This document shows positions 8,712 through 45,041 of a stretch of 52,709 nt of DNA, piece after piece. The position numbers and the translations under genes are program-made. Below the pieces are notes generated by a model. That model was given only the letters and a program-made list of their open reading frames with translations, was not told the origin of the DNA and did not search any database. Each line of letters begins with the position of its first letter. The stretch's first letter is position 1. Source of the DNA: Pseudobdellovibrionaceae bacterium (lineage in GTDB: Bacteria; Bdellovibrionota; Bdellovibrionia; Bdellovibrionales; Bdellovibrionaceae); assembly GCA_041288045.1 (NCBI GenBank), contig JBGGMM010000209.1, positions 1 through 52,709 on the forward strand. The letters run 5' to 3'.

Positions 8712-8914
8712 CATTTGCCAGACGGCCACGATGGCCGTCTGGAAGCCTTCGCATGGACGGAGGCACTTGCGTTTACCTCCGGCACCGCTGTGCTCGAGAC
8801 CCGCGAAATCATTTGCTGAGGTGGTGTGCAAAGCTTGCGTCTTCGCCTGATCGTGAACATCCATGTCCGTTGCCTCACCCCTTCGGGGCTCGCCTTTGGC
8901 GGAGTTTCCAGAAA
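8712..8914 (+). repeat. Dispersed structured repeat, copy 1 (near full length, one internal deletion and one insertion)
   Basis: Aligns by eye to 15481-15570, 31441-31611 and the reverse complement of 44805-45041. Confidence 0.9.
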
Positions 8915-9029
8915 GCTAGAAGGATTGGGAGGAATATTGAGATTAATGGAAAAATATCGCGTAGCAACACCACGGCGGTGTTGTGGCGTTCCAGCGTTAG
9001 GAGCCTTTTTGACTGCGAACTGAAATGAA

Positions 9030-9671
9030 TCAGTTTTTTTGTGGATCTTTGCTGGATCGGTCGGGTCTTTGGTTGTTGCGGTTTTGGTTTTGACCTTGAT
9101 TGCGGTCCCGATTTCGGTCTCGGCCGCGATTTCCGCGGCGGTTTCGATTGTTGCTTTGTCTTGGGTCGCGACCTTCGGTTTGTTGCAAATGCGGGGCGCC
9201 CTCTTCGGGATGCCCTTGCTGCACATTAGTACCTGGGTGATGACCATGGGGATGATGATGCGGCTCTTTCACTGCGGATTCTTCTAAAACCAAAGTTCCT
9301 TGCTTAGCTTGGGTTTCCACATGGGATCCCTTTTGGCCTGGAGCTCGGAAGCCACGAACTTTTTTGCTTTGGATTTCGCTGCGCTCGATCTGTTCTGTGA
9401 GATCGACTGTGATATCGCCATAACAGTGCACTTGGCAGGACAGGCGCCTTTGATCGATGAAGTAATTGGTGCCAATCAAGCTCATCTCAGCTTTGGAAGG
9501 TGGGACGATGTTGTGCTCCCCTTCGACGATACGAACCCGGCATTCAGCGCAGCTGGGAACACCTTTGCAAATGGATTTGATTTCGATGTTGTTTTCAACA
9601 CAAAGCTGCAAAAGGGTTTTGTTGGGATCGGCTTCAATTTCGCGACCTGTGGGGACGAATTTGATTTTCAT
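9030..9671 (-). CDS. [2Fe-2S] ferredoxin-domain protein with a long His- then Arg/Asn/Gln-rich tail
   Basis: [10 protein letters not shown]...RLSCQ cluster motif; 4-nt overlap with the tyrS stop. Confidence 0.85.
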
Positions 9672-10882
9672 TTGACCACCACTTTCACAAATTTTTTCTT
9701 ACCCGCTTTGATCACGAGGGTAAGACCTGGTTTCAAATCAATTTTCAATTGCTCGTTTTCCACTTTGGATCCGTCAATTTCAACAGCTCGGCCCGCGATC
9801 AAGCGCTTGGCTTCGCTGGTCGAAGGGGCAAGCCCAGCATTTTTCATCAAAGCACAGATCCCGATGGGTTCGGCGCTGGAAGCCACAGAAAATTCTGGCA
9901 CTTCATCCGGCAGACCCTTCTCGACAAAAATTCGATTGAATTCATCTTCAGCGGCTTGTGCAGCTGTTTGCGAGTGAAAACGTGAAATCAAGGTTTTAGC
10001 CAAATTCACTTTCACATCGCGAGGATGCTTTTTTCCGCTCTGCAAATCAGCTTTTAATTGCGACAGCTCCGGGGGCGTGATGTCGGTCAAAAGCTCATAC
10101 CAGCGAATCATCAGCTCATCAGAAACTCGCATTGTCTTTCCGAACATCTCTTTCGGCGAATCGACAATTGAAATGTAATTATCTAGAGACTTGGACATTT
10201 TGTTCACTCCGTCCAGGCCTTCGAGAATGGGAGTGGTGATCACAACCTGCTGTTCGGATTGGCCGTAAGCTTTTTGCAGCTCGCGCCCCACCAGCAAATT
10301 GAATTTTTGATCCGTTCCGCCAAATTCAATATCGGATTTCAAATGAACCGAGTCATAGCCCTGACAAAGAGGATACAAGAGCTCATGAATGGAGATTGGA
10401 GTGTTGCTCTTAAAGCGCTTGGTGAAATCGTCTCTCTCGAGCATTCGAGCCACCGTGTACTGGCCCGTGAGTTTGATAAAATCCCCTGGCGACATTTTCT
10501 GAAACCATTGAGAGTTGTAGACGATTTCTGTTTTCTCTGGGTCTAGAACTTTAAAAATTTGCGCGGCATAGGATTTGGCGTTTTCTTCGATCTGCTCACG
10601 GCTTAAAGGCGGTCGGGTCTCGTTTCGACCGGTGGGATCGCCAATCATGGCTGTGAAATCGCCGATCAGAAACTGCACTTGGTGACCGAATTTTTGAAAC
10701 TGTCTGAGCTTATTGAGAACCACTGTGTGTCCCAGATGCAGATCCGGCCTGGTGGGGTCAGCCCCCAATTTCAATTTGAGAGGCTTTTTCTCTTTTTCAC
10801 TGCGCTCAAGTTTTTTCAGAAGGTCGGCTTCACTGATGAAGTCGACAGTTCCCATTTTGAGCTGTTCGAGAATCTCTCGCAT
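9668..10882 (-). CDS. tyrS: Tyrosine--tRNA ligase
   Basis: [13 protein letters not shown] (HIGH motif), [14 protein letters not shown]-terminal S4 domain. Confidence 0.97.
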
Positions 10883-10888
10883 GAGACT

Positions 10889-12454
10889 TTACCTCGCCAT
10901 TTCAACAGAGCGAGTTTCACGCACCACGGCCACTTTGACCTGACCCAAATGCGGCATCTCACGCTCGATTTTACGAGCGATATCACGAGACAGCATCAGA
11001 GTTTGATCATCGGTGACTTTGGAAGCTTCAACAATCACTCGGACCTCTTTACCAGCTTGCACTGCAAAGGTCTTTAAGACGCCATCAAAGCTATTGCCGA
11101 TGCTCTCAAGGTCCTGCAGACGATTGATGTAATTGTCCATTCCGGGACGCCGAGCTCCTGGTCGAGAGTTGGAAAGAATGTTCGCAGCTTGCACAATGTG
11201 AGCGATCATCGAATTCGGTTGCTCATCATTGTGATGGGCGCGAATGGCATGGCAAACGCCTTCGCTCTCACCAAATTTTTTGGCAAATTCAGCACCGACA
11301 AGGGCGTGATTGCCATCCACTGTGTGGTCGAGGCCTTTACCAATATCATGCAAAAGCCCAGCACGACGGGCGAGCTTGACGTTGCCACCCACTTCGGTGG
11401 CCATGAGACCGGCTAGGTAAGCGACTTCCATCGAGTGATTCAAAAGATTTTGCGTGTGAGTGTGGCGGTATTTCAAGCTTCCCAGGACTTTGACAATTTC
11501 TGGATGCAAATTGGTGATTCCCAATTCCACCAAAACTTTTTCGCCTTCTTCTTTGATGGATTTGGTGAGCTCGACCCGCATTTTTTCCACCACTTCTTCA
11601 ATTCGAGCCGGATGCACGCGGCCGTCTTCCATCAATTTTTCCAAAGTGCGCTTGGCAAGCTCGCGGCGAACTGGATCAAAACCTGAAATCACCACCGCTT
11701 CTGGAGTGTCATCGACGATCAAATCGACGCCGCACAAAGCTTCGAGAGTGCGAATGTTTCGCCCTTCGCGTCCGATGATTTTCCCTTTCATCTCATCGCT
11801 GGGAAGAGACAGGACACTGACAGTGCGCTCGGAAGTGTATTCGCCGGCAAAGCGGGCCAGGGCAATCGATAGAATGCGCTTGGATCTGGTAGTCGCTTCA
11901 GATTCGGCTTGCTTTTCGATTTCATCGATTTTGCGGGCCGCTGCCAATTTGGCGGATTCTTCAAGAGCAGAGAACAGTTCGCGCTTGGCTTCATCCGGGG
12001 TCATTCCACCCACTGAGCCCAGTTTTTGCCGAAGTTCTTGAAGCTCCTGTTCGGCTTTGGTTTCAAGCTCTTTGCTTCGATGCTCAGCAATTGCGATTTT
12101 TTCTTCGCGATCTTTCAGAGTTTGAATGAATCTGTCGTTTTCCTCGAGCTTTTGCTTGAGCTGCTCATCGACTTCTTTCAGTCGGCGCTCGAGTTGAGAC
12201 TCTTGGTTTTTCAATTTGGATTTTTGCTTTTGAATGTCGGATTCGACATTCTTTCGTGCCCGGGATTCGAAATCCTTGGCTCGGGTTTTTGAATCCTTAT
12301 CGATTTTGGCGGCTTCGGATTTGGCGCGATTGACGATTCGATCGGCCTCAACGCGGGCCGATCGCTTTTTGGCTTCATCCTGCATTTTCTTGATGTAGAA
12401 AACACCGAATCCACCGACGATCAAACCCACTAGAACTGAAATCAAGACTTCCAT
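10889..12454 (-). CDS. rny: Ribonuclease Y
   Basis: N-terminal TM helix, coiled coil, KH (KGKIIGREGRNIR), HD (LLHDIGK), RPGAR, typical C-terminus RETRSVEMAR. Confidence 0.95.
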   Translation of the reverse strand: MEVLISVLVGLIVGGFGVFYIKKMQDEAKKRSARVEADRIVNRAKSEAAKIDKDSKTRAKDFESRARKNVESDIQKQKSKLKNQESQLERRLKEVDEQLKQKLEENDRFIQTLKDREEKIAIAEHRSKELETKAEQELQELRQKLGSVGGMTPDEAKRELFSALEESAKLAAARKIDEIEKQAESEATTRSKRILSIALARFAGEYTSERTVSVLSLPSDEMKGKIIGREGRNIRTLEALCGVDLIVDDTPEAVVISGFDPVRRELAKRTLEKLMEDGRVHPARIEEVVEKMRVELTKSIKEEGEKVLVELGITNLHPEIVKVLGSLKYRHTHTQNLLNHSMEVAYLAGLMATEVGGNVKLARRAGLLHDIGKGLDHTVDGNHALVGAEFAKKFGESEGVCHAIRAHHNDEQPNSMIAHIVQAANILSNSRPGARRPGMDNYINRLQDLESIGNSFDGVLKTFAVQAGKEVRVIVEASKVTDDQTLMLSRDIARKIEREMPHLGQVKVAVVRETRSVEMAR

Positions 12455-12467
12455 ATTTTACCTATCT

Positions 12468-13022
12468 TCAAACTTTTCCAATTTTCACAACACCCTTCTC
12501 GGTGGCGAGCCATTTCATTTTCACATCCCAAGCATCCTTGGGGAGCTCATCCACGACCAGAGAAGAGAAACTAATCCCTACGGTTTCACCAGCATAATTG
12601 GCTAAAGCTTGATCGTAATAGCCTTTGCCTTTGCCGATGCGCCCCCCTTTTTGATCAAATCCCAAACCCGGAACCAAGAATCCGGAAATTTCTTTCACAG
12701 AAATTTCTCGGGCTCCCTCAGGCACTGGCTCGAGAATCCCAAAAGCCGCAGTTTCAAATCCGGCTTTGGGCTCAAAAAAGTGAAGCTTGCCATTCATCAC
12801 TCGTGGATAAACCCACAGGATGTTTGGCACTTTTGGCAGAAGTTGGACGAGAGAAATTTCAGAATCGAGGGCCTGGTACAAACACCAGTCCCCGCTTTGG
12901 CTTTTCAGAAACTGACTCAAATGCTCGATGAGCTGATGAGTTTTTTCTTCTTTTTCTTCGAGCTGGGCAAAACGAGTTTTCAGCTCTTTCCGCCACTTGG
13001 CTTTTATGCCTCTTGATTCTAT
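12468..13022 (-). CDS. ygfA: 5-formyltetrahydrofolate cyclo-ligase (start uncertain)
   Basis: FGILEP, LVPGLGFDQKGGRIGKGKGYYD, WDVKM. The frame stays open upstream of the TTG at 12920 and encodes the expected basic N-helix KAKWRKELKTRF; ATA at 13022 is proposed as start. Confidence 0.85.
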   Translation of the reverse strand: MESRGIKAKWRKELKTRFAQLEEKEEKTHQLIEHLSQFLKSQSGDWCLYQALDSEISLVQLLPKVPNILWVYPRVMNGKLHFFEPKAGFETAAFGILEPVPEGAREISVKEISGFLVPGLGFDQKGGRIGKGKGYYDQALANYAGETVGISFSSLVVDELPKDAWDVKMKWLATEKGVVKIGKV

Positions 13023-13336
13023 ACGTTCAATCCCTGCCGGGTGATCTTAGAGTTCTCAAGGCTGTCAGAAAGTTTCAGAGTTTTTTCTTCTAAAATCTCC
13101 AGCTCTCGTTGAGCTTTTCTTTTCAGAAGAATCAGTTCTTCAGCAATATTCAGCGCCGCTAGGACGGCGGCACTTTGAAACGAACCCGATTTTGTCACTG
13201 TGAGCGCTTCTTTGACTTTGCGATCGACGTAATCGACCAGCTCTTGAACAGTGGCTTCGTCATGCAAGGATTTGAGCTTGTATGGCAAACCCGCAATTTG
13301 AAATTCGTAAGTTGTTTTATCTTTCAAATTCGACAT
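13019..13336 (-). CDS. zapA: Cell division protein ZapA
   Basis: YEFQIAGLPYKL...LVDYVDRKV...AVLAALNIAEEL; conserved position before ygfA-rny. Confidence 0.9.
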   Translation of the reverse strand: MSNLKDKTTYEFQIAGLPYKLKSLHDEATVQELVDYVDRKVKEALTVTKSGSFQSAAVLAALNIAEELILLKRKAQRELEILEEKTLKLSDSLENSKITRQGLNV

Positions 13337-13488
13337 GACTCTATATTGGTTGAGGTCATTTCATTAAATCTCTGAAATTCTTCAGCCTTTAAGCCTTAAA
13401 TTCCAACATCACGCTCAACCAGTATAGAGCACAATAACCCTGAATCAAGTCAGATCCATGACTTAGGGCAATAAGCAGCTTTTCAGAA

Positions 13489-13857
13489 TTATCGAATGCG
13501 CGTTTTGACTTTGTAAGCCCCAGTGGATTGGCAAACGGTCTCGGATTGTGCGTTTTTAGAGCAGTTTGGGCTGTTGCAAGTGATGGAGATCACCTGGTTG
13601 CCGTCTTTGTTCATTTCTTTGATCTCTTTTTTCCAATCATCGCATTCTTTTTTCCAAGAAGTGCGCGCCGTCTTGGTTAAAACTTCAGGTTCACCGGCGA
13701 TTTCGGCGGATCCTTCAGTGATTCGCCATTCGTTCTCATTCACCTTTTCTTTCGAGATGGTGATGGTTGTATCAGCTTCCGTTGGAATGTCTTTGATGGC
13801 TGCTGTTTGTGCAAAGACAGATGATGCCATGAACATCATCAAAACGAATGTTTTCAT
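13489..13857 (-). CDS. Small secreted hypothetical protein with four Cys
   Basis: SD GAGG, signal peptide MKTFVLMMFMASSVFA; fills the ftsY-zapA gap. Confidence 0.75.
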   Translation of the reverse strand: MKTFVLMMFMASSVFAQTAAIKDIPTEADTTITISKEKVNENEWRITEGSAEIAGEPEVLTKTARTSWKKECDDWKKEIKEMNKDGNQVISITCNSPNCSKNAQSETVCQSTGAYKVKTRIR

Positions 13858-13865
13858 AGTGGACC

Positions 13866-14987
13866 TCACAGAATGGATTCCACAAATTCTTTCGCAGAAA
13901 AAGGCCGGAGGTCACCAATTTTTTCGCCAACTCCAATAAAACGAATAGGGACCTTGAGCTCGTGTGCCAAGCCCACGGCCACTCCGCCTTTGGCGGTGCC
14001 GTCCATTTTAGTGAGAACCACGCCGGTCAGTTGCAGAGCTTGATTGAATTCTCGTGCTTGCACCAAAGCATTCTGGCCTGAGTTCGCATCCAGCACGATC
14101 AGGACTTCATGCGGCGCATCTGGAATCACTTTGGTGATCACTCGTTTCATTTTTTTCAGCTCTTCCATCAAATTGGCCTGAGTGTGTAGACGGCCTGCTG
14201 TATCAACAATGACCACATCGTAGCCCTTGGCTTTGGCATGTGAGACGGCATCAAAAGCAACAGCAGAGGGGTCGGTCACACCCGGGGGTGAGAAGATTTC
14301 GACTTGGGCTCTTTCGGTCCAAGTTTTCAACTGGCTGCCGGCCGCTGCTCGGAAAGTGTCCCCAGCTGCGACCAAAACTTTGCGGCCCGAGAAGGCCAAG
14401 TGCGCCGCGATTTTTCCAATCGAGGTGGTTTTGCCTGTGCCGTTGACTCCGACAATCATCCAAACCGAGGGATGAGAAGACAAATGCATGTAGGCCATGG
14501 TGTTTTCATCATGCGGTTCTTGGATATGGGCTTTTTCGAAAATTTCTTCGAATTCCGTGCGCAGAGCCGACTTGATGGCTTCGAGATTGTTTTTCTCACC
14601 CCGAGAAAGTTGCTCTTTCACTGCTCCCATCAGGCGATCGACTGTGAGCGGGCCTAGGTCACTGGTGTAGAGGACCTCTTCGATCTCCTCGAAATTTTTT
14701 TTTTGCAAATCACCGGTGAAAATCTCTTTGATCCGACCCAAGAGATTTTTTTCGGTCGGAGCCAGAGCCTGCCGCAAAGTGGTTGAAGGACGCAGCATCT
14801 CTTCTTCATCGAGAGATTCCTTGCGTGCCTCCACATCCATGGCCACTTGCGGACCGGATTCCTCGGCAGGAACTTCGGGGAGTCTTCGTTTTCTGAGACT
14901 GGCGACGAGAACGCCGACCATCACAAAAACCAAAAGACCAATCACAGTGATCATCACCAACATTGCATTAGAACTCTCGGCCGTCAT
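13866..14987 (-). CDS. ftsY: Signal recognition particle receptor FtsY
   Basis: GVNGTGKTTSIGK, DTFRAAA, DTAGRL, TKMDGTAKGG, FIGVGE; hydrophobic N-terminal helix. Confidence 0.96.
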   Translation of the reverse strand: MTAESSNAMLVMITVIGLLVFVMVGVLVASLRKRRLPEVPAEESGPQVAMDVEARKESLDEEEMLRPSTTLRQALAPTEKNLLGRIKEIFTGDLQKKNFEEIEEVLYTSDLGPLTVDRLMGAVKEQLSRGEKNNLEAIKSALRTEFEEIFEKAHIQEPHDENTMAYMHLSSHPSVWMIVGVNGTGKTTSIGKIAAHLAFSGRKVLVAAGDTFRAAAGSQLKTWTERAQVEIFSPPGVTDPSAVAFDAVSHAKAKGYDVVIVDTAGRLHTQANLMEELKKMKRVITKVIPDAPHEVLIVLDANSGQNALVQAREFNQALQLTGVVLTKMDGTAKGGVAVGLAHELKVPIRFIGVGEKIGDLRPFSAKEFVESIL

Positions 14988-15303
14988 CGGGTGCCTCCGG
15001 AATAGAATTTGGTTTTAACACTCGGGACTGGGAATTAGACAAGCAAGTTTCAAATCCCGGCTCGCCTTTTTTGATCATATTATTTTGAGCGTCAATACAA
15101 ACCGTCTTTTGCGGAATCAGATTCGTCGTTTGCCGCTTTCCCGGCGTCGGCACATCCTGGAACTGATTCATGTCGATGTCCCCACGAGACGCCGGCACCT
15201 TCTGCTCCTGACCCTGTGAGTTCTCAGGAGCCGCCCAAGCCGTCATCGCCTGTGGAGTGCATTGAATCAGGAAAAGAAAAAGAACTTCAAATCGTTTGAA
15301 CAT
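14968..15303 (-). CDS. Small hypothetical protein, probably exported
   Basis: SD AAGGAG before ATG 15303; hydrophobic N-terminus ending AWAA; overlaps the ftsY start. Confidence 0.6.
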   Translation of the reverse strand: MFKRFEVLFLFLIQCTPQAMTAWAAPENSQGQEQKVPASRGDIDMNQFQDVPTPGKRQTTNLIPQKTVCIDAQNNMIKKGEPGFETCLSNSQSRVLKPNSIPEAPDDGREF

Positions 15304-15480
15304 TTGAGCTCCTTTCAGCCGGGCCAAAAAGGCCCTCCTCTCTGTGAAACCAAAGCTTGGCAGGAAAGGCAAGGTTTGGGTGAAGAAGCCAAAATTGCCG
15401 CGCATTGCTTGAAGCAAAAAAGGGATTGATTTCCGCGAGGGGCAAAGCCTTGCATTCTGAAGCACCGCCCATCTGAATTT

Positions 15481-15570
15481 CACTTGCCAGACGACCACGA
15501 TGGTCGTCTGGAAGCCTTCACACGGACGGACCCACTCACGCTTACCCTCGTCACAGCTGTGCTCGAGACC
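15481..15570 (+). repeat. Dispersed structured repeat, copy 2 (5' half only)
   Basis: CACTTGCCAGACGACCACGATGGTCGTCTGGAAGCCTTC is identical to copy 4; abuts the stop codon of the ABC permease. Confidence 0.9.
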
Positions 15571-16641
15571 CTAAGCCTCGCGCTGATTCCGATCCAAACT
15601 CACAGCTAGAATAATAATCAAACCCTTGAGCACCATCTGATAAAAACTAGAAACTCCAAGCAGATCCATCCCATTATTCAGCGTCGCCATCATCAACGCT
15701 CCAATCAAACTTCCAAGCACAGATCCAGATCCACCCTTGAGACTTACACCACCGATCACAACCGCAGCAATCGCATCGAGCTCATAGAGCTGACCCGCAT
15801 TCGGATCCGCCCCATTCAATCGACCCGTCAGCAGAAAAGCCGCAAGCCCAGCATAAAGCCCCATCAAAGTGTAAACCGCGATTTTGACTTTCTGAATCGG
15901 CACACCCGCCCAGTAAGCGGCTTTTTCATTGGAGCCCAAAGCATAAATACCCCGGCCCAAAACTGTTTTATTCAGCAAGACCCAAGTCACCACCACAATC
16001 GCCAACAGAAAAAGAGCAAGATAAGGAAATCCGCGGTAAGTGAAAAAGCTATAGCTGAAAATCCCCAAAGCAATCAGTGGGAAAAGCGAATTCCAAAACT
16101 GAGATCTTTGCTGCCACAAATGGCGAAGGAAAAAAAGAAGAACAACTCCAAGCAGCACCCACGTAATGACTTCCGAAAAATACCCACTGGCCAGATTATT
16201 AAGCCCCTCACTCATTGGCGAGATGCTAGACCCGCCTGAGAAAATCAAAGCAAGGCCTCTGGCAATAACCATCATCCCCAGCGTGATCACAAATGGCGCA
16301 AGCCTCAGTGTCGAAATCAAAAGTCCATTGATCAACCCAAGCCCCGTCCCGGCCGCAAGAGCGATGAGAATGGAGACTTCCAGACTATGTCCCCACATCA
16401 CTTGCGACAGGCCTACCAAAATTCCACAGAGCGCCACCACACTGCCAATCGAAAGATCAATCCCACCAGTCAAAATCACCATGGTCATACCAGCAGCCAG
16501 AATCCCGTTCAAAGTCGCTTGTCTGAGAAGATTCGTCAGGTTCCGTGGGGAGAGAAAATCGCCGCCAGTCCAAATGGTCAGCACCACGCCCAAAACAAAA
16601 AATCCGATCCAAGCGCCGTTTTGCCGCCAAAAATTTTTCAT
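15571..16641 (-). CDS. Monosaccharide ABC transporter permease (XylH/RbsC-like)
   Basis: ILTGGIDLSIGS, PFVITLG, ELDAIAAVVIGGVSLKGGSG; multiple TM helices. Confidence 0.93.
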   Translation of the reverse strand: MKNFWRQNGAWIGFFVLGVVLTIWTGGDFLSPRNLTNLLRQATLNGILAAGMTMVILTGGIDLSIGSVVALCGILVGLSQVMWGHSLEVSILIALAAGTGLGLINGLLISTLRLAPFVITLGMMVIARGLALIFSGGSSISPMSEGLNNLASGYFSEVITWVLLGVVLLFFLRHLWQQRSQFWNSLFPLIALGIFSYSFFTYRGFPYLALFLLAIVVVTWVLLNKTVLGRGIYALGSNEKAAYWAGVPIQKVKIAVYTLMGLYAGLAAFLLTGRLNGADPNAGQLYELDAIAAVVIGGVSLKGGSGSVLGSLIGALMMATLNNGMDLLGVSSFYQMVLKGLIIILAVSLDRNQREA

Positions 16642-31440: not shown

Positions 31441-31611
31441 CTTCGTCTGATCGTGAACGTCCGTGTCCGTCTTTTCTGGAAATTCGGCCATCCGCCGACA
31501 GTCATCGTCCAGCTTCGCCTCCGCGGCTCCAGGCCTCACCCCTTCGGGGCTCGCCTGCGGCGAGTTTCCAGAAAACCTTAAATGGAAATACAAACACAAA
31601 TGCAGCAGAGC
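31441..31611 (+). repeat. Dispersed structured repeat, copy 3 (3' half, with an insertion in one loop)
   Basis: GTCTGATCGTGAACGTCC...TTTTCTGGAAATTCGGCCATCC...GGCCTCACCCCTTCGGGGCTCGCCTGCGGCGAGTTTCCAGAAAACCT matches copy 4; starts 15 nt after the mrp stop. Confidence 0.9.
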
Positions 31612-31654: not shown

Positions 31655-31721
31655 GCTACACTCATGTCAGTAGTTGAACGAAACCATTGGCAGCGGCGTT
31701 CAGAAAACGCTGCGGCATTTT

Positions 31722-31816
31722 ACTTTCTGTTCCCATCCATTTGAACTGCCGATCACGATGATCGGCAGTCCGGGGGTTCGGGGCAGGCCTGCCCCGATTG
31801 CATGGATGCAGAAAGT
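31722..31816. ncRNA. Multi-branched structured non-coding element of unknown class
   Basis: Closing stems ACTTTCTG/CAGAAAGT and CATCCAT/ATGGATG enclose ACTGCCGATCA-CGA-TGATCGGCAGT and the palindrome CGGGGCAGGCCTGCCCCG. Confidence 0.45.
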
Positions 31817-32088
31817 TCATGACCACCCCCAAACTTCAAAGCCCCCACTCAAATTTGCCGCTAAGAGATATGTTATTTTCCAAAGTCCCGCCTCAGTTCA
31901 AACTCAAACGATTTGATCTCGACCTCAGACGATCTCAGCCAAAGCCCATGTCATTGCTAAAAAAAATCGAAACAACAGGAACTCTGTCTTTTTTGGTGTT
32001 AGGGTGGACGCAATTATCGCTAGTTTCCGAGACTGTGTTCATTCTGTTCATGCCCTCCGAAGTAGCACTCAAGTCCTGAGGAGGTTCT

Positions 32089-34425: not shown

Positions 34426-34592
34426 AAAATAAATGGAGGTTGGAATGCACGTGATTTTCGATCCAAAGCCCAAGTGACGACCCGTCACTAGGATGGCTAC
34501 CGCAAAGAAGCATTCACTTAAAACCAAAAAGAAAACTTAAAAACTGATGAAGGAGGTTCCCGCAGAAATTTAGATAGGATTTTCATCCTTCC

Positions 34593-34690
34593 TTTGCTCA
34601 AGGCAAACTTGTGGAAACGCGAGGGCGCAAAGCTAGAGGGGCTAACAGGTCGAGACTCATGACCTCATGCCAGCCAGACTGCCAGAGGAC
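34593..34690 (+). ncRNA. Cyclic di-GMP-I (GEMM) riboswitch aptamer
   Basis: GGCAAAC-TTGTG-GAAA-CGCGAG-GGCGCAAAG (P2 with GAAA tetraloop), P3 with receptor-like GCTAA...ATGCC, ending CAGCCAGACTGCC. Positions equivalent to Vc2 G20 and C92 are G and C, consistent with c-di-GMP rather than cGAMP. Confidence 0.88.
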
Positions 34691-34855: not shown

Positions 34856-37189
34856 ATGATGCGGAAACGTTTTTCGGATCGCAAATTAGTCATAGGGACG
34901 CTGGTGCTTCTAATTATTGAAGTCACTTGGCTCCTCATGCATTTGCAGATGATCCCGAATCCCTTTCGCACAGCGACTCCACGAATGGAGCAACAACCCG
35001 CCGGCTATGTGGTCAAATCCCAACATGAACTGCGAAAACGCGGGCTGAATTCTTTGGTGTGGGAAAATTCAGAGAGCAACGACACTCTTTATTATTTTGA
35101 TTCGGTTCTTACTTTGTCACAATCTTCAGCTACACTGTATTTGCATGAGCAGACCGAAGTGCATTTGTCTGAAAACACTTTGGTCACCATCGAGCCACAA
35201 ACAATGGCCCAGGATTCGCAAATCCGCTTGAAATTCACTCGCGGTGATTTGCGCGCCAGAAACCCCTACGCTAGCACCAAAATCGAATCCAAAGAGTGGA
35301 GCTTAAGCCTGAACCAAGGCTCCGAAGTTTCATTAAGACAAACAGGCAGCGATGATTTCGAAGTGGAAGTGCTCAAGGGAAATCTGGAATTTCAGAAAGA
35401 CAGCAAAACTTCGGCTTTAGCCGAGAGCCAGGTTTTAAAAATTGAAGACAACAAAATCTCTGAAACTTTGAAAATCGAAAAGGATCTCAAATTTCAAGGC
35501 CCTGATTATCAAAGAATTTACTCTTTCCAAGATGAAGCTAAAATCCCTCTCACTTGGAAGGGACAGGCTGAGAAAATTCAAATCGTCCCTCTGGGTGAAG
35601 AGAAGGTCGTGAAAACTCTCGAGCCCGGCCAAAGCGCCGAAAATCTGGATCTGCGCCCCGGAAAATACACTTTGCGACTTTTAAAAGATGGCAAAGTTTC
35701 AGAAGCCAAAGAAATCGAAGTCTGGAAAGCCCCCACCCTGCATCTTTTGGCCCCTTTTCCGCGCGACCGAGTTCGCACTCAGGAAAACATCTCTTTCATT
35801 TGGTCTTATATGCCAGAAGCTCGTGAGTACAAATTTGTGATCACCGACAACCGCACGGGCCAGATCGTTGAAAAACGAGTCAAGGACAATGCCATTGATT
35901 TCAATTTCCTCGATGAAGCCGATGTGCAGTGGAAAGTCATTGGCATCGATGCCGACGGCTTTGAAATCCCCTCCCCCTACGCCAATCAGATTTTCCCACG
36001 CCATGAAATTTTCTCGGCCCCTAAGCTTCTCGATCCCAAGCTTCGGGCTCCGGCATCCAAGAAAAAGCCCAAGCCGGATTCGTCAAACCTGAGACCACGA
36101 AGCTCGCTTTTCACTTGGATCCTCCACAACTTGATTTCTAGCGCCGAAGCCCAGAGCAAGAAAAATTCTGCCGATTACGAAGCTGTCTTTGCTTGGGAAC
36201 CTGTCTCTGGCGCCGATATTTACACAATCGAAATTTCAGATTCAGCGGATTTTCGCTCTCCAAAACTTTCCAAGCAGGTGAAGCGGACCGAATTTATTTG
36301 GTCGGGATTCAGTTTGGGTACTTATTACTGGCGAGTGGCTGCCGGATCTTCGAAAGGTCGAATGGGACTTTTCTCTGAACCTGCAAAAGTACAATTGGAA
36401 AAATTGCCGGAAACAGCTTCCAACAATGACGGCGTCTTGATCAGAAAAAAACCTGAACTTGAAAAAAAGCGGGATCCGGTTGTGACTAAAACTGAAGTGA
36501 TCTTCAACAACGCTCCGGCCACCCAATTTGATGAAAAACGGTTTGAAGAAAAAACCGTCTTAGCCACCGATGATCAAAGGCAGCTCAAGGACACCTACTT
36601 GCTGTCATGGACCCCGGTTTGGACAGGATGGACCCTCAATGGTGAGAATGAATTAAAAGCCAAACTGAATGGCTCCACTCAAGGCGCCGCCCACTTTCAA
36701 ACCGAGCAGCTTCTCTCTCAAGAGCGCAGCTATTTCGTCGATGTCTTCTATGCGCAGTACAAATGGCAGGCCACGGACGAATTGACCTATCCCTTCCAGG
36801 AAGATCAATCCTACACGGACTTCAAAACCCAGATTCTCTTTGGTGACAACCGAAGCTCCCTTTTGCGAGGGGGAGTTCTGCAAACTCTCCCCTACATTGA
36901 AAGATCTGACCTTGAAAAAGTCGAAATCAAAACGGCCCTTGCCATCGGCCCTTCTGTCTACGTCACTGGAGCCAATTCAGAACGAGCGAAAAGCGGGCAT
37001 TCCCTGGCGGTGGTGGCCGGCTCTCAAGTCTTTGGCCTTTCAACCCAACACCATTGGCGCTTTCTGTTCTACAAAGGAGATTCGACATCGCTCTCCATTG
37101 GTGTCAGGGCCCAAGGGGATTTGGTTTTTCATGACCGAAGCTTTTCCGGCGGCTGGTCCGGAGGCCTGAGTCTTGGATTTGAACACTGA
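34856..37189 (+). CDS. Large envelope protein: N-terminal TM, FecR-like domain, Ig/FN3-like repeats, beta-rich C-terminus
   Basis: DSVLTLSQSSATLYL...LSENTLVTI (FecR-like); FAWEPVSGADIYTIEIS...YYWRVAA (FN3-like). Confidence 0.75.
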   Translation: MMRKRFSDRKLVIGTLVLLIIEVTWLLMHLQMIPNPFRTATPRMEQQPAGYVVKSQHELRKRGLNSLVWENSESNDTLYYFDSVLTLSQSSATLYLHEQTEVHLSENTLVTIEPQTMAQDSQIRLKFTRGDLRARNPYASTKIESKEWSLSLNQGSEVSLRQTGSDDFEVEVLKGNLEFQKDSKTSALAESQVLKIEDNKISETLKIEKDLKFQGPDYQRIYSFQDEAKIPLTWKGQAEKIQIVPLGEEKVVKTLEPGQSAENLDLRPGKYTLRLLKDGKVSEAKEIEVWKAPTLHLLAPFPRDRVRTQENISFIWSYMPEAREYKFVITDNRTGQIVEKRVKDNAIDFNFLDEADVQWKVIGIDADGFEIPSPYANQIFPRHEIFSAPKLLDPKLRAPASKKKPKPDSSNLRPRSSLFTWILHNLISSAEAQSKKNSADYEAVFAWEPVSGADIYTIEISDSADFRSPKLSKQVKRTEFIWSGFSLGTYYWRVAAGSSKGRMGLFSEPAKVQLEKLPETASNNDGVLIRKKPELEKKRDPVVTKTEVIFNNAPATQFDEKRFEEKTVLATDDQRQLKDTYLLSWTPVWTGWTLNGENELKAKLNGSTQGAAHFQTEQLLSQERSYFVDVFYAQYKWQATDELTYPFQEDQSYTDFKTQILFGDNRSSLLRGGVLQTLPYIERSDLEKVEIKTALAIGPSVYVTGANSERAKSGHSLAVVAGSQVFGLSTQHHWRFLFYKGDSTSLSIGVRAQGDLVFHDRSFSGGWSGGLSLGFEH

Positions 37190-39425: not shown

Positions 39426-39855
39426 TGCCGCTTTTCTTTCTTCGCTCTTCAGCTGCAAACAGAACTTGAAAAACTTTTTCCCTGAGGGTTTCCCCTCGAA
39501 AGGGCTTGACGATATAAGAATCCACATGGTGCTGCTTGGCGCTTGAAATTTTCTGTCGTTCCTGCGATTGCTGCGAAGTCACCATGATAAAGGGAGTATC
39601 GGCTCGGTGTTTATGAGCTCGGACAGCACGCAGGAAAGTCAACCCGTCAGTCCTCGGCATTTCCCAATCTGAAATGATCAAATCCAGTCTCTGAATCTGA
39701 TCGACCACGAAGCGAAAAGCTTCAGTTCCATCATTGGCTTCGAGAAAATGCTTAAAACCAAAAGACATCAAATGCTCAATGATGATTTTTCGGACCACGT
39801 CATCATCGTCAACGACGAGAATGATCATTCTTTCAAGCTTCATCATGTTTTCCAT
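39412..39855 (-). CDS. Single-domain response regulator (CheY-like)
   Basis: ILVVDDD, LIISDWEMP, FIMVT, YIVKPF; SD AGGAGG. Confidence 0.92.
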   Translation of the reverse strand: MENMMKLERMIILVVDDDDVVRKIIIEHLMSFGFKHFLEANDGTEAFRFVVDQIQRLDLIISDWEMPRTDGLTFLRAVRAHKHRADTPFIMVTSQQSQERQKISSAKQHHVDSYIVKPFRGETLREKVFQVLFAAEERRKKSGNEAS

Positions 39856-41158
39856 GATTCCCCTCCTGCCGTGTGGGCAGGCGCAGTCGCACCAACGCCC
39901 CACCTTGCGGATGATTTTCGATCACAAACTCGCCTCCGTGCTCAATTTCGATAATCTCTTTGCAAATCGCCAAACCCAACCCAGATCCTTGTGAACCCTT
40001 GGTTGTAAACAGAGCCTCCGTCACACGTGGCAAAATCTCTGTTGGGATGCCAGGGCCATGATCGCGAATGCTGATTTCAATGGTGTCCTGATCCAGCTTA
40101 CCAACCGAGAGATCCAATTGACCACCCTGAGGCATGGCGTGAGTGGCGTTGATAAAAACATTCATAAAGACTTGAACGAGAGAGTGACGATTGGCCTCGA
40201 GCAGAATCTGTTCCCACTTTTCTTTCTGCACTTGGATTCTGCATTTTTTAAATTGATAGCCCATCAGATCCAAAGCTTCTTCCAAAGGCTGAAGAATTTG
40301 AACGAGTTTATGCTCGGAACCCGTCACTCCCCCTTGCGCCAATTTCTTGAATCGTCCCAAAACACTGCTGGCTGTATCCGAAGCCTTGAGAATGGTTTCC
40401 AGTGCTTCTTTCATTCGTTGAGGCTCGTTTTTTAAAACGGCTAATTCTGCATGACCGACAATTTGCATGAGCAAATTGCCAAACTCATGAGCAACACTTC
40501 GCCCAACGGCCGCAACCGTGTTGGCTCTTTCGTTTTGCAAAAGCATTCTTTGCGCATCGGCCAGTTGCTCTTCATGCCACTCTTTCATTCTCTGCAAATT
40601 CCAAAGTGAAGTGATGTTTCTGGCTTTTTGAATGATTTCACCATCGGTGAAGGGTTTATTGATATAGTCCCAGCGATCGGATTTGTCCTCGCCCAAATAC
40701 TCGTTGATCGAATCCACACTGCGATCTTGATAGGCTGTTACAAATACTGCGAACAAATTGGAATCCAGGCTCTGCAATTGTTTGACGAGCTCAATCCCAT
40801 CAATATCGGCTCCCATCAACACATCGAAAAATCCCATCGCAAATGGCCGCCCCTCAGCCAGCGACTCCTTCACCGCATCGAGAGCTGCCTGGGGATCATG
40901 GACCACAGTGAGTTCATAATCCGTCGGCGATTTGGAATTGGGCATTGCCGTCGGCGCCGAGGCTGGAGCCGGGGCGCTTCGACTGGATCTGCGGAAAGGA
41001 ACGACATTTGAAACTTCCGGAGACAAAAGTGCTCGAATTCCTTCGGCGATTGCCGGCTCGTCATCGACAATCAGAATGCGGCGATTGAAAACCGGTGCCG
41101 TTTTTGATTTAACAGTTTGTTGCGAATCGGGCTTGAGATTCTTAGCAGCTTCGCTCAC
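39833..41158 (-). CDS. Hybrid REC-HisKA-HATPase kinase
   Basis: ILIVDDEP...FFDVLM...YINKPF, VAHEFGN, NVFINATHAM, DHGPGI, GSGLGL. Confidence 0.9.
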   Translation of the reverse strand: MSEAAKNLKPDSQQTVKSKTAPVFNRRILIVDDEPAIAEGIRALLSPEVSNVVPFRRSSRSAPAPASAPTAMPNSKSPTDYELTVVHDPQAALDAVKESLAEGRPFAMGFFDVLMGADIDGIELVKQLQSLDSNLFAVFVTAYQDRSVDSINEYLGEDKSDRWDYINKPFTDGEIIQKARNITSLWNLQRMKEWHEEQLADAQRMLLQNERANTVAAVGRSVAHEFGNLLMQIVGHAELAVLKNEPQRMKEALETILKASDTASSVLGRFKKLAQGGVTGSEHKLVQILQPLEEALDLMGYQFKKCRIQVQKEKWEQILLEANRHSLVQVFMNVFINATHAMPQGGQLDLSVGKLDQDTIEISIRDHGPGIPTEILPRVTEALFTTKGSQGSGLGLAICKEIIEIEHGGEFVIENHPQGGALVRLRLPTRQEGNHGKHDEA

Positions 41159-43242
41159 GCAGCAGCCCCCTTGTTGTTTGCAATTGCAATTGGCAGATGA
41201 ATTTTGAAAACTGTTTTTTGCAGTGGCTCAGAAGAGACAAATTCAATATCCCCGCCATAGCCTCTGACAAATCGACGGCTGATTCCGAGCCCAAGGCCAG
41301 TGCCCTCGTCCGGGGATTTGGTGGTGAATTGGCTTTCAAACAAGCGGTTTTGGTTCTCCGGAGAAACTCCGACGCCTGAGTCTTCAATGTAAATATGCAG
41401 CTGGCCCTTCACAAGTGCTGTCACCAAACGCAGACTTCCCTTTTTCCCGGACTGAATTTCAGCTTCATGAAGAGCTTGCAGAGAATTTCGCATCATATTG
41501 GTGATCGCTTGCACGAATTCGTCACGGTCCACCATCACAGTGTCTTTTTCGGAATGAAATTCCTGCAGAATTTTGTAATCTCGCTGCTGAAAGAGATCGG
41601 CCATGATATGACAGCAGTCTTTTAAAATCTCGTGTGCGGAGTGGGCTCGTTTGTCAGAGCGGATATTGGAAAGCTTTCTCATTCCATTGATGATCTTATT
41701 GATCCGAGCTCCTTCTTTGATCAAAAACTGAGTGTCCAAATGCAAAGCTGAAAACTGAGTCTGCATCTGGGCTTCAAGGCCATGAATATTTTCAAGATCC
41801 TCTTTCCATAAATTCATTTCTGGATTCACCGTCGAGGGCTTTTTCCAATTCTCAACCAGCAAGTCAAATCCGCCATGAGAAAAATCTTTTTCCCAGGCAT
41901 GAGAAATATCAGTTAGAACCTGCAGTTGCGGAGTCATTTCGGATTTGATCTTTCTCTCCATGATTCCAACCCGAGTCAGCAAGCTGGTGAGAGGATTCAA
42001 AACTTCATGGGCCGCGCGACCGGCAATCTCCCCAGCCGAAGCCAGACGAGTGGTTCGGATCAAAGCCTCTTGCGCTTCTTTGACTTTGTGGTTTTGCTCT
42101 TCCAATTGCTGAGTGCGCTCTTTGACTTTTTGATCCAAATCGCGATTGATTTCTTCAAGCTGATCCCTGGATTGCTTGAGATCGACGATCATTTGGTTGA
42201 AGCTTGAAGCCAAAACCGCCGTTTCGTCTTTGGTAGAAATCGGGATCTGAGTCGTCAAATCCCCTTGTGAAACCAAACTCATGCGCTCAACCAATTGCGC
42301 CAAGGGCTCTGTGAGTGAGCGCGACAGAAGAACCGCAGCCAAGAATGCGGCTGTGATAATCATCAAAGAAAAGATCAAAGACCTTTCCACCAGCTGGCTC
42401 ACCACGAAAAAAGCATCTGCTTCAGAGGCCTGCGCTAAGACCACGGCCTTTCCACCTTTGGTTTTTGAAAAAGCTCCCAGGACTTTTTCCCCTTGCGATT
42501 CAAAATTGATCACTTGGGTTTTAGTCTTGGCGTCCATGGCAGCCAGAAAAAGAGGGTTTGAAATGATCAGGCTTTTTTCTTTCAGAGTTTTCGCGTCCGG
42601 ATGGGCGAGGATCTCGCCTTCACGGTTGGCAATTGTGATTTCGCTGAGCTTCACCAAAGAAAGAGCTTTTAAAATCCGGTCGATTTTCACATAGCCAACG
42701 ACAGCCATTTGATCAATGGCGACACCTTGGCCGTCTTCAACCACCACACTTCGGCCAAAGCCAATCAGCGGCGGTCCCTCTTGGGTTGTGGCATTCCAGA
42801 TGGCATCGCCGTTTTTAAGGATATTCGAGAAAGGAACTGGCCGTTCCTGGCTGATGTCTTTTTCAAAGTACTCGCTCTTGAGACCATAGGTTTCGCGAAA
42901 ATTTTTGCTCTCGTATTTCCGAATGATCTCGGCTCCATTTTTCTTATAAAGAGAAACAAAGACGACGTCTGAATCATTGGCAAATAGGTCACCGATCCAG
43001 CGCGCCTGAGGACCCGAAGAAAGAACCGCAAAGAGTTTGAATTTATCGGAAATCCCCTCAAACTGGGTGTCGAGCTCAGAGGCCAGATTGGACACTTGGC
43101 TTTTGTTCAAATCAAAAACCAATTCTTCTTTGTCAGACTTAAAAACTTTCACAGCAATCAGAAGATAAATGCCCACACAAGCTGCGAGCAACAGACTCAT
43201 GACCACGAGAAACTTATAACGAATTGAGAATCCTACCTTCAT
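41155..43242 (-). CDS. Membrane sensor histidine kinase (periplasmic Cache-like domain, HAMP, HisKA, HATPase)
   Basis: Two TM helices, HAMP (LTEPLAQL...DETAVLASSFNQM), AAHEVLNPL, DSGVGV, GTGLGL. Confidence 0.92.
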   Translation of the reverse strand: MKVGFSIRYKFLVVMSLLLAACVGIYLLIAVKVFKSDKEELVFDLNKSQVSNLASELDTQFEGISDKFKLFAVLSSGPQARWIGDLFANDSDVVFVSLYKKNGAEIIRKYESKNFRETYGLKSEYFEKDISQERPVPFSNILKNGDAIWNATTQEGPPLIGFGRSVVVEDGQGVAIDQMAVVGYVKIDRILKALSLVKLSEITIANREGEILAHPDAKTLKEKSLIISNPLFLAAMDAKTKTQVINFESQGEKVLGAFSKTKGGKAVVLAQASEADAFFVVSQLVERSLIFSLMIITAAFLAAVLLSRSLTEPLAQLVERMSLVSQGDLTTQIPISTKDETAVLASSFNQMIVDLKQSRDQLEEINRDLDQKVKERTQQLEEQNHKVKEAQEALIRTTRLASAGEIAGRAAHEVLNPLTSLLTRVGIMERKIKSEMTPQLQVLTDISHAWEKDFSHGGFDLLVENWKKPSTVNPEMNLWKEDLENIHGLEAQMQTQFSALHLDTQFLIKEGARINKIINGMRKLSNIRSDKRAHSAHEILKDCCHIMADLFQQRDYKILQEFHSEKDTVMVDRDEFVQAITNMMRNSLQALHEAEIQSGKKGSLRLVTALVKGQLHIYIEDSGVGVSPENQNRLFESQFTTKSPDEGTGLGLGISRRFVRGYGGDIEFVSSEPLQKTVFKIHLPIAIANNKGAAA

Positions 43243-43350
43243 TGATAACCTCACGCCAAACGTGTTTGACACGTCCACCTCTTGTCTTCGACAAAAGCTG
43301 GAAAAGACTTAACAAATTGGTAAGGTCTGGGTGGGCTTTTCGCTAAGTCA

Positions 43351-44586
43351 TTAGCGAGGCGTTCTCAGGGCACGTTCATCACTCACAGCCGTTTGTCCAC
43401 CTGAAGAAACCGAAATCCCTTTAAAGGCATAAAGAGTATTGGCCAAAAGTCCAGTCACTGTCACCGTGTGATTCTTGACTCGATTTGGATCCAGAGTCGT
43501 CCTGAAAACGACTCCTGTCCCCACATTGCGAACTTCGACCTGAGAATCCGAATCGACATTGGTCTGCCAATTCAAAGTGACCGAAGTGCGAGTCACACCT
43601 GTCGTCTGAAAGCCAGTGATTGAGAGCGTTTCTTCCGCTGGCACGCAGGGGTTTGAAGCTTGCTCTGGGAAATAATAATTTTCATTCTCAAGCACTTTCC
43701 AATTTCTTGAAAGCAGCTCATAAAAAGGTGACTTCGCCGCAGTCGGAACCACTGTTGAATTGAAGAAGAGCGAGTTGCCAGATTGACCACACCGAGGGTC
43801 ATTCACAGGAAGATCCGGATCGGTGCCATCAGGCAATGGTCTCCACATCACGACTAATGAAATGTGATAACGAGGTCCTTGATAATAATCCAAAGTGAAG
43901 GGCAGCTTCGTGTCCCTTTGCATGTTCACAGTCTGCAGAGGACAAGCCATGCGAGTCGAATGCTCGCCATCATTACTGATAATGGTGGTCTCACCGCCAC
44001 TGCCATTCGAAACTCGCATCACAGCCCCATCATCAGAGAGAATGGCGATCTGATAAAGACCGGGATTTTCATTGGCTGCCAACTGCAATTGACCGGAAAA
44101 ACGCAGAGCAAAGTATTCGTACATGGGCTCGTTGCGATGATTGAGAATCACATCCCCAGTTTCGGTCATAAAGCCCAAATCAAAAGCTCGCGTCGGTACA
44201 AAAAGCCTGTCGAAATAAAGAGTGCTCTCGACAATATTTCCAATTGTAAAATAGTCGGCCACTCTCTGGATAGAAGGCTGACCATTGCGCGGTGGCATCG
44301 TATCATCCAACCACACCATATTCGCAATCACTCCCCGATCCCGAGCTGCCGGAGAATTGGAATTAAAAGGATCACAAATCGTTCTTTCGGGACTCGTTAA
44401 AGGAGGGAGAGGTTGACCTGGTGTTGGCTCATTCACAACAGTTGTGCCAGATTCAGATCCCTGACTTGTCTCATTTGGACATGCTGTCAGAAGCTGTGTC
44501 AGAGCGAGAAGCAGCACAACTATAAAAATCCCCAGACAGCGTTTTTGGGCTAACTGACTCGATTTTAAAACTGTTAATGCTTTCAT
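43351..44586 (-). CDS. Putative lipoprotein with PA14-like and fibronectin type III domains
   Basis: Lipobox LLTAC; FALRFSG, LSDDGA, NDGEH, LDYYQGP (PA14-like); VTLNWQT...HTVTVTGLLANTLY (FN3). Confidence 0.8.
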   Translation of the reverse strand: MKALTVLKSSQLAQKRCLGIFIVVLLLALTQLLTACPNETSQGSESGTTVVNEPTPGQPLPPLTSPERTICDPFNSNSPAARDRGVIANMVWLDDTMPPRNGQPSIQRVADYFTIGNIVESTLYFDRLFVPTRAFDLGFMTETGDVILNHRNEPMYEYFALRFSGQLQLAANENPGLYQIAILSDDGAVMRVSNGSGGETTIISNDGEHSTRMACPLQTVNMQRDTKLPFTLDYYQGPRYHISLVVMWRPLPDGTDPDLPVNDPRCGQSGNSLFFNSTVVPTAAKSPFYELLSRNWKVLENENYYFPEQASNPCVPAEETLSITGFQTTGVTRTSVTLNWQTNVDSDSQVEVRNVGTGVVFRTTLDPNRVKNHTVTVTGLLANTLYAFKGISVSSGGQTAVSDERALRTPR

Positions 44587-44804
44587 AAACCACCAACCAT
44601 CAGCTAAAAATATCAACAATTCCACCTTACATTTTACTCTCCTTAAAAAAAGAAGGTGCGAAATACCTCAAACTGTCCCAAAAGCGATGAAGTTTTGAGC
44701 CGAACCGGGACCATTCCCAAAGCGAGATAATCATTCCAAGATTCGCCCCGGAATGAGATGAAAAACAGAAAAAACTAAAGTTGACGACCAGAACAATAAC
44801 CACC

Positions 44805-45041
44805 GCTTTGCTGTATTTGCCTTTGTATTGTAGGTTTTCTGGAAACTCGCCGCAGGCGAGCCCCAAAGGGGTGAGGCCTGGATGGCCGAATTTCCAGAAA
44901 AGACGGACATGGACGTTCACGATCAGACAAAGACGCGAGCTTCGCACACCTCGTCTCAAGCACAGCGGTGCCGATGATAAACGTGAGTGTGTCCGTCCAT
45001 GCGAAGGCTTCCAGACGACCATCGTGGTCGTCTGGCAAGTG
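44805..45041 (-). repeat. Dispersed structured repeat, copy 4 (most complete, inverted orientation)
   Basis: Its reverse complement contains, in order, all modules shared among copies 1-3. Confidence 0.9.

Follow-up and report, generated by a model that had tools for sequence, protein, structure and literature searches.

Modular hairpin repeats of a Pseudobdellovibrionaceae bacterium resemble both REP/BIME mosaics and TwoAYGGAY elements

The question raised by the locus

What are the hairpin-rich sequences that recur between the genes of contig JBGGMM010000209.1 of a Pseudobdellovibrionaceae bacterium (assembly GCA_041288045.1)? An initial annotation of the whole contig, which is 52,709 nucleotides long and is referred to here as the window, had taken four dispersed copies for a mobile structured element, either akin to REPINs and BIMEs (REP, repetitive extragenic palindromic sequence; REPIN, REP doublet forming a hairpin; BIME, bacterial interspersed mosaic element) or of a new class. 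The likeness to REP and BIME sequences stands, as do the many copies and the modular build; the proposal of a new class does not. The repeats form a multi-copy, non-coding family of mosaic hairpins, which is under selection for folding and is most likely selfish DNA spreading in the manner of REPs, BIMEs and REPINs. It is a new variant linking REP/BIME mosaics with the TwoAYGGAY elements.

The window is contig C209 of the genome labelled G000, whose assembly comprises 2.89 Mb in 249 contigs (46.5% G+C) and is 83% complete. Modules, Y1 families and Rfam matches were surveyed over a panel of 41 related genomes, among which G006, G007 and G003 are congeners of G000, G018 belongs to another genus, and G033 and G036 to other families.

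Size, anatomy and placement of the family

The two halves of copy 4, used as blastn queries against G000, found 65 loci, and the expectation that copies are numerous genome-wide was thereby borne out. A covariance model of module A (R1), built from an alignment of 43 copies from G000 and its congener G006, matches G000 53 times; a model of the B domain (R2) does so 47 times, some loci being counted on both strands. In 47 hairpins the apex is conserved and the stem reaches 5 bp or more.

The anatomy of the element is taken from an alignment of 19 longer copies. At full length it spans about 290 nt and consists of a pyrimidine-rich left flank, module A, module M, a linker, module B and a purine-rich right flank. 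Module A is an 11-bp hairpin with the apex CCACGATGG or CCCGGAYGG, followed by a tail of about 60 nt that carries an invariant CAYGGAYGGA plus CACCGCTGTG. Module M is a near-perfect central hairpin of about 24 bp. Module B presents, in order, a small hairpin, GATCGTGAACRTCCRTGTCCGT and a branched domain; its long and short forms differ by one clean 25-nt block. The modules seen (A, M, B, a variant A, a small hairpin and a classical REP) are separable, and they occur as A alone, B alone, A-M-B, A-B, A'+REP, REP-rcA'-A''-rcREP and a B end with a variant A. As in BIMEs, several repeat motifs are combined in fixed orders.

Gene context, which rests on crude open reading frame (ORF) calls, places the copies between genes, as had been noted for the window. 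Of the 54 loci with a called downstream gene, 45 have that gene pointing towards the element, and at 37 of 55 loci the upstream gene runs in the direction of the element; intervals between convergent genes are the commonest context (26/59 loci). Where A stands alone it mostly adjoins, in antisense, the stop codon of the converging gene, and copy 1 sits behind a strong intrinsic terminator. At least 10 of the 19 aligned copies have a short CTGYCY box upstream of hairpin A, at a distance of 15-25 nt (for example, window 45046-45060 and L001:135-150), with TGTCCC in the copies of G006. It is loosely reminiscent of the GMTBT repeats reported upstream of TwoAYGGAY elements in Pseudomonas.

The copies in the window are as follows.

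8712..8800, plus strand: copy 1, module A (R1 match 8688-8808, 116.7 bits)
8823..8914, plus strand: copy 1, module B, short form (blastn and alignment of copies)
8963..8985, no strand assigned: small hairpin GCAACACCACGGCGGTGTTG (CCACGRYGG apex as in hairpin A; 5 copies in the genome)
15480..15570, plus strand: copy 2, module A alone (hairpin 15487-15511; R1 match 15457-15577, 110.9 bits)
31441..31578, plus strand: copy 3, module B alone, long form (R2 match 31472-31577, 87.6 bits)
31715..31831, plus strand: fifth copy, a divergent variant A-type module (R1 match 27.3 bits, E 1.3e-9)
44832..44950, minus strand: copy 4, module B, long form (R2 match 98.7 bits)
44953..45042, minus strand: copy 4, module A (hairpin 45011-45035; R1 match 44945-45065, 117.2 bits)

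All four copies first described were recovered at their places and on their strands, and they can be aligned with one another. Hairpin A reads CCAGACGGCCA-CGA-TGGCCGTCTGG in copy 1 and CCAGACGACCA-CGA-TGGTCGTCTGG in copies 2 and 4, which confirms the G-C to A-T double change claimed between them. In copy 1 the hairpin (8718-8742) is followed by a tail bearing CATGGACGGA (8752-8761) and CACCGCTGTG, then by a 22-nt linker (8801-8822) in place of hairpin M. Its module B holds the GTGCAAAGC..GCGTCTTCGC hairpin, GATCGTGAACATCCATGTCCGT, CCCC-TTC-GGGG and CGCC-TTT-GGCG, without the left arm of the outer stem and without the inner GGCC hairpin. The 3' domain attributed to the family, with GGCC..GGCC, CCCC-TTY-GGGG and CGCC-NNN-GGCG hairpins, is present in copies 3 and 4; copy 1 has the short form only.

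Copy 4 has A fused straight to B, without hairpin M, and its branched 3' domain (44833-44901) has an 11-bp outer stem around three hairpins. That stem had been drawn with 15 bp and a T.G wobble. It comprises about 11 bp, and the G of the supposed wobble pairs inside hairpin 3 instead, because a double change there (CTCGCC/GGCGAG to TCCGCC/GGCGGA) is seen in three copies. Copy 3 carries a 36-nt insert (31492-31527) within the loop of its inner GGCC hairpin. The fifth copy consists of a hairpin, GAACTGCCGATCACGATGATCGGCAGTC, an additional hairpin, CGGGGCAGGCCTGCCCCG, and then GCATGGATGCAGA; its variant-A subfamily has 14 blastn matches in G000.

Folding and covariation

Selection for folding had been proposed from the four copies, and it is upheld by the larger alignments, in which pairing is kept above all controls made by sliding the stem partners out of register. 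With both alignments fitted to their models, and so biased toward the modelled structure, 95.7% of the cells of hairpin A are paired (52 matches from 31 sources aligned to R1; slid controls 32-41%) and 9 of its 10 pairs show changes on both sides. The B domain (32 aligned matches, five of them the reverse strand of loci already included, so that its counts are somewhat inflated) is 97.0% paired, as compared with 31-59% in slid controls, with double changes in 21 of 25 pairs; all 11 pairs of its outer stem covary. These outer stems are wholly unlike one another even among the forward-strand B rows only. The stems of hairpin A are entirely different by subfamily (CCAGACGACC, CAAGACGGCC, ACTTCCGGCC, CCTTCTGGCC, TTTCCCGACC, AATTCTGGCC) around a constant apex. 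Loops and AYGGAY motifs stay fixed while the stems undergo many double substitutions.

Energy-based folding agrees. One full copy, compared with its shuffles, folds with z = -8.0 on the plus strand and -6.3 on the minus strand. RNAalifold, applied to the 43 module-A copies, predicts the hairpin with compensatory changes in 7 of 10 pairs, and an additional short helix, CAUGG/CUGUG, that contains two G.U pairs. At Watson-Crick positions, G.T deviations outnumber A.C by 12:4 in M, by 8:3 in the first hairpin of B and, as we read the true copies, by 5:0 in hairpin A. Folding by one strand is thereby suggested, among copies that are related; this fits RNA and single-stranded DNA alike.

Two further structures were considered and rejected. 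The first was a copy-specific outer stem, or insertion into existing palindromes: cognate flanks pair only slightly better, at a mean of -18.9 kcal/mol, than mismatched flanks, at -17.1 (permutation p = 0.052), and the flanks are generic pyrimidine and purine tracts belonging to the units. The second was long-range pairing between CATGGAC in A and GTCCATG in B, which change without compensation in 10 composite copies inspected by eye; hence this complementarity is read as inverted homology. As for a role in termination, a consensus scan of 8500-16000 did not pick out hairpin A, be it on the plus or on the minus strand.

Module B as an inverted relative of module A

Three features of their sequences show modules A and B to be related in inverted orientation, which makes the 290-nt composite a tail-to-tail doublet around hairpin M. 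No terminal inverted repeat had been recognized in the initial annotation. Inverted symmetry is nevertheless present: CATGGACGGAC of A is mirrored in the 5' part of B by GTCCATGTCCGTC, the reverse complement of the A-tail motif, with an exact TCCGTCCATGG in the copies of G007, and the left pyrimidine-rich and right purine-rich flanks mirror each other as well. The complementarity of left and right that follows from these mirrored flanks is general but not copy-specific (p = 0.052). Two inverted units forming a doublet, the arrangement of a REPIN, are found in the tail-to-tail A-M-B. Head-to-head A-type pairs occur in G000 and G006, and inverted B-domain doublets in G006 and G007.

The insert of copy 3, first put at about 37 nt, is real, but it is a discrete block of 36 nt shared by eight copies (window 31492-31527, C181, C234, C25, C189, C217, C64 and C167). 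In four of these it lies in the hairpin-A loop; in the other four, the inner hairpin of B contains it. It always occupies a conserved hairpin loop, between GGA words and in a single orientation relative to the hairpin. When B is reverse-complemented, orientation and junction (YGGA-insert-GAKGG) are identical to those in A. DNA may break and be joined preferentially at this hairpin loop. In copies of G006 another small GC-rich insert (GGGGGCGCCC) is found at the position of the 36-nt insert.

The AYGGAY core

The TwoAYGGAY motif has been catalogued since 2010, without a known function. In the present family, CATGGACGGAC of module A includes ATGGAC and ACGGAC, and ATCCAT in the inner loop of B is ATGGAT on the opposite strand. 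Across 16 composite copies AYGGAY words reach 9.5 per kb in the sense and 9.3 per kb in the antisense direction, versus 0.88 per kb genome-wide, an enrichment of about tenfold, and their layout is mirror-symmetric across the two strands. The opposite-strand reading of this inner-hairpin loop of B is ATGGAT in G006, G007, G033 and G036, and GTGGAG or CTGGAT in G000.

One B-domain copy of G036 matches RF01731 (TwoAYGGAY) over its full length and on the strand expected from its ATGGAT loop, scoring 35.7 bits versus the cut-off of 43 bits. In 13 further loci RF01731 has no match. At its gathering score it matches none of the 41 genomes, and its six sub-threshold matches fall in four genomes, with none in G000. 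The family is thus not a formal member of RF01731. A match to a described family, which would remove the novelty of the repeats, is reached only below threshold and by a copy of another genome. Over the window and the 31 loci scanned, no Rfam family attains its gathering score for the repeat, as only an unrelated riboswitch does so (see below); permissive scans returned chance matches to miRNAs and snoRNAs, besides the single TwoAYGGAY match. The best reading of the conserved AYGGAY motifs is that the family is the Bdellovibrio-lineage counterpart of the TwoAYGGAY elements.

Y1/HUH enzymes near the repeats

No transposase had been seen in the window, and this holds for the families scanned, Y1 and TnpB-type (PF07282): the Y1 matches of G000 all lie on other contigs, and PF07282 has no match anywhere in the 83%-complete genome. 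Y1_Tnp matches G000 ten times, seven of these above the Pfam cut-off, and three families can be told apart.

The first is IS200-like. It has six near-full copies (C25, C234, C242, C27, C86 and C43), with 82-89% protein identity to the C234 copy, and fragments at the contig ends of C63, C77, C163, C107, C59 and C24. The unit of about 750 nt is made of a leader of about 250 nt and an ORF of about 480 nt, for a divergent Y1/HUH protein of 136-199 amino acids. This protein passes Pfam Y1_Tnp and falls below the NCBIfam cut-offs for IS200 (33 versus 55 bits) and for RAYT (REP-associated tyrosine transposase). Its HUH histidines align, weakly (E 0.15), with those of IS608 TnpA (PDB 2A6M). Homologues are multi-copy across the order, being found in 26 of the 41 genomes with up to 49 matches in the 2.9-Mb genome G001.

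A reverse-oriented module A lies directly upstream of four of the six near-full copies, with varying spacing and completeness of A. Where the hairpin end is retained (C25, C234, C242), module A stands about 245-290 nt from the start of the Y1 ORF; in C86 it is truncated at the edge of the Y1 unit. By our own arithmetic, four adjacencies out of six, set against 53 A copies in 2.89 Mb, are far above chance, with the reservation that the units are paralogous and so not independent. In C86 (9922-10160), a single case, A is cut exactly within the tandem AYGGAY, leaving GGACGGAC; the cut may mark where a deletion ended or where the DNA was cleaved.

The second family is a single RAYT-like gene for 220 amino acids, part of a complete classical REP-RAYT locus (C213:12959-13734); the nearest solved structure to its product is TnpA-REP (4ER8, E 4.9e-7). 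The gene is bracketed on both sides by inverted copies of a different REP, GGGTGCCTTTCTCTTTTTCCTTCACCC. About 50 copies of this REP exist, often with TAG just ahead of them and frequently arranged as tight inverted doublets; in four composite loci it stands at a constant distance behind A-type units. A third Y1 family, with the motifs HIHLLIRIS and FRPFTR, occurs on C108, C100 and C71 (9 genome matches by blastn depth) and is not located beside the repeats described here.

Whether genomes that have module A also have one or the other Y1 family was tried as an indicator and proved uninformative, both enzymes being far more widespread. Near the Y1 genes of 19 other genomes a crude script, which imperfect stems may escape, found no recurrent perfect hairpins.

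Distribution and possible traces of mobility

R1 detects module A in 12 of the 41 genomes, with 83 copies in G006, 63 in G018, 53 in G000, 22 in G007, 8 in G033 and at most 3 in the others. R2 detects the B domain in seven. The site orthologous to copy 1 is empty in G007 and G003, which have the terminator and a short spacer only; in G006 it holds other hairpin repeats.

Three soil-metagenome DNA runs yielded no clean empty allele; the joints found there are repeat-related, and contigs break at the repeats, where depth is 37-49x versus 6-7x. No RNA run is listed for the sequence among public runs.

Proposed mode of spread

The hairpins are predicted to form in one DNA strand while it is single-stranded during replication. 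A Y1/HUH enzyme that recognizes hairpins would then cut and rejoin them, and the best candidate for it would be the IS200-like Y1 encoded directly beside four copies. New combinations of modules would probably arise by recombination at short shared motifs.

Several findings weigh against spread as REP-like selfish DNA. The initial annotation had suggested looking for a Y1 or RAYT transposase flanked by hairpin A, and the outcome is divided: module A lies upstream of the four IS200-like genes but beside none of 21 RAYT loci in 8 genomes, G000 included, and only one of 19 family-1 loci sampled in other genomes has it nearby, as a weak match of 16.4 bits. Sequence repeated around the Y1 genes does not extend beyond the Y1 unit, which has nothing in common with the element, so that the insertion sequence could target the repeats rather than move them. 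The Y1 family is also much wider than module A (26 versus 12 of 41 genomes). At the copy-1 site no target-site duplication or exact insertion junction could be defined, the congeners being too diverged. The copies show no preference for either replication strand (A 11:16, B 15:11, REP 18:11), in a comparison of low power on a fragmented assembly. REPs do not usually have a long conserved tail such as this one, of about 60 nt and maintained between genera, and the G.T excess and GGA-rich motifs would suit RNA equally.

A broader idea, put forward tentatively and with more doubt than confidence, is that AYGGAY elements, including TwoAYGGAY, are at root single-stranded DNA mobile elements. IS200-like Y1/HUH enzymes would then recognize or cleave their conserved hairpin loops and AYGGAY words, which would not be RNA sponge sites, and the present family would display this ancestral logic openly. 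The idea is prompted by the mirror-image AYGGAY on both strands, the loop-targeted insertions and the Y1 gene docked at hairpin A.

Alternative explanations

The alternative that survives best, although we hold it to be unlikely, is that the repeats are functional structured RNAs of the TwoAYGGAY kind. Transcripts of A on the plus strand and of B on the minus strand would expose several motifs containing GGA and so sequester or recruit CsrA, as a sponge or as a site in the 3' untranslated region, and multiplication would be secondary. The invariant CAYGGAYGGA indeed consists of two overlapping AYGGAY-type motifs, and ATGGAT is present in the inner loop of B, on the opposite strand, in G006, G007, G033 and G036; most hairpin-A loops of G000, however, read ACGAT and lack GGA. 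The full-length RF01731 match of the G036 copy (35.7 bits) is offset by the lack of any Rfam match at gathering score in the 41 genomes, the window and the 31 loci scanned. That G.T exceeds A.C in the helices, and that CAUGG/CUGUG needs two G.U pairs, would agree with RNA, and CsrA is encoded in G000 (90.7 bits). A Csr/Rsm sponge role for AYGGAY loops is reported as a proposal in the preprint 10.64898/2026.09.22.753630. Between convergent genes each incoming transcript would reach its own sense unit first, but solo A copies are mostly antisense at the stop codon of the converging gene, a strong terminator stands ahead of copy 1, and there is no promoter-like site beside the copies in 8500-16000. 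Mirror symmetry on both strands and the shuffling of modules point instead to a process at the level of DNA.

It is less probable still that no dedicated enzyme is involved, and that copies arise and are reshuffled by errors of replication: in hairpin-rich DNA between genes, short motifs held in common would allow template switching and recombination. Junctions do fall on short common words. At C4:29410, for example, A joins a B end at CCTCCA, a word present at the start of M and in the inner loop of B. The single 25-nt block that separates short from long B, the location of the 36-nt insert between repeated GGA words and the failure to find a cognate transposase at the RAYT and IS200-like Y1 loci sampled are of the same tenor. 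Some 65 unlinked sites, together with high copy numbers in other genera and families, are nevertheless hard to obtain without a transposition-like step, and the strict conservation of loop and AYGGAY across genera suggests recognition by a protein.

Finally, a miniature inverted-repeat or palindrome-associated transposable element (MITE/PATE) of IS200/IS605 that retains the ends of its parent and possibly encodes a TnpB/IscB omega RNA is very improbable and largely refuted: IS200-like Y1 genes exist in at least six copies and the element is long and highly structured, as omega RNAs are, but PF07282 is absent from the 83%-complete G000, neither HEARO nor any other omega-type Rfam family matches, the Y1 gene never lies between A and B, and the Y1 unit and the element have no sequence in common.

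Other features of the window

A cyclic di-GMP-I (c-di-GMP-I) riboswitch aptamer is located at 34592-34686 on the plus strand (RF01051, 59.8 bits; gathering score 35) and precedes, by some 170 nt, an ORF of 777 amino acids (34856-37189). Within an ORF of 1820 amino acids (1551-7013, minus strand), the segment 3985-4648 has a summed metagenome contig depth of 540-750x versus about 6x nearby, with numerous internal joints in the three soil metagenome runs. These values suggest that this coding segment of the giant ORF is repetitive or is shared very widely.

Comparison with known systems

Papers that join Bdellovibrio with RAYT or with "repetitive extragenic palindromic" contain, by title and abstract, incidental mentions and no account of such repeats; the portions of PMC6006769, PMC5581495 and PMC3733652 used here do not mention Bdellovibrio. 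For annotation, the repeats matter in that they break assemblies of Bdellovibrio-like metagenome-assembled genomes, where they are found at contig ends, and yield spurious ORFs; they could also pass for riboswitches or small RNAs.

The REP, BIME and REPIN systems served by RAYTs in E. coli and Pseudomonas, as far as they are described in the sections used of PMC3116915, PMC3333891, PMC3733652, PMC5581495 and PMC6006769, share with the present family high-copy extragenic hairpins with covarying stems. Other points of likeness are the inverted doublets, the mosaics with other motifs, the location at gene 3' ends, the patchy distribution and the Y1/HUH genes of G000, one of which (on C213) is flanked on both sides by its own REP. 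The units differ in size, however, since REPs measure 20-40 nt whereas A is about 90 nt long and the B domain about 70 nt and branched. Unlike REPs, the family has a conserved unpaired tail of about 60 nt with tandem AYGGAY. By the definition in PMC3733652, a REP palindrome bears an unpaired tag, GTAG or CGTC, at one of its ends; hairpin A has no such tag, and CGTC is found only inside the stems of some subfamilies. Furthermore, the sole adjacent Y1 is a multi-copy IS200-like gene on one side only, unlike in REP-RAYT systems. With IS200/IS605 (IS608 TnpA, PDB 2A6M) the likeness resides in the HUH histidines of the neighbouring Y1 and in its multi-copy unit; the repeat itself is not derived from the ends of the insertion sequence.

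The other close system is the TwoAYGGAY RNA motif (RF01731; Weinberg 2010, PMC2864571) with its extended forms in Pseudomonadota. For the latter, the 2026 bioRxiv preprint 10.64898/2026.09.22.753630 reports large structural extensions, divergent doublets, median copy numbers of 11-23 (maximum 202) and REP arrays downstream at a fixed position. There a Csr/Rsm sponge role is proposed for the AYGGAY loops, while the "mobile-element-like" expansion is unexplained and the link between mobility and regulation in Pseudomonas is left open. A related family in a distant phylum offers an independent system in which the reader of AYGGAY, be it a DNA enzyme or CsrA, can be sought. Its advantages are a simpler unit of a single hairpin followed by a tandem AYGGAY tail, clear covariation, a mirror layout and a candidate Y1 beside copies.

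The two families differ in that the AYGGAY pair of module A lies in an unpaired tail after one hairpin and not in two terminal loops, and in that the B domain of G000 has a YGGA word in one loop only, on the opposite strand. The host phylum is different, and modules are here freely exchanged. Nevertheless, both families have AYGGAY motifs, hairpins on a common basal stem (in the B domain, a basal stem with three hairpins) and a high, very variable copy number. Both also form doublets, which are here head-to-head, divergent A pairs, and some units of the present family have a RAYT-type REP downstream at a fixed position, as TwoAYGGAY elements do.

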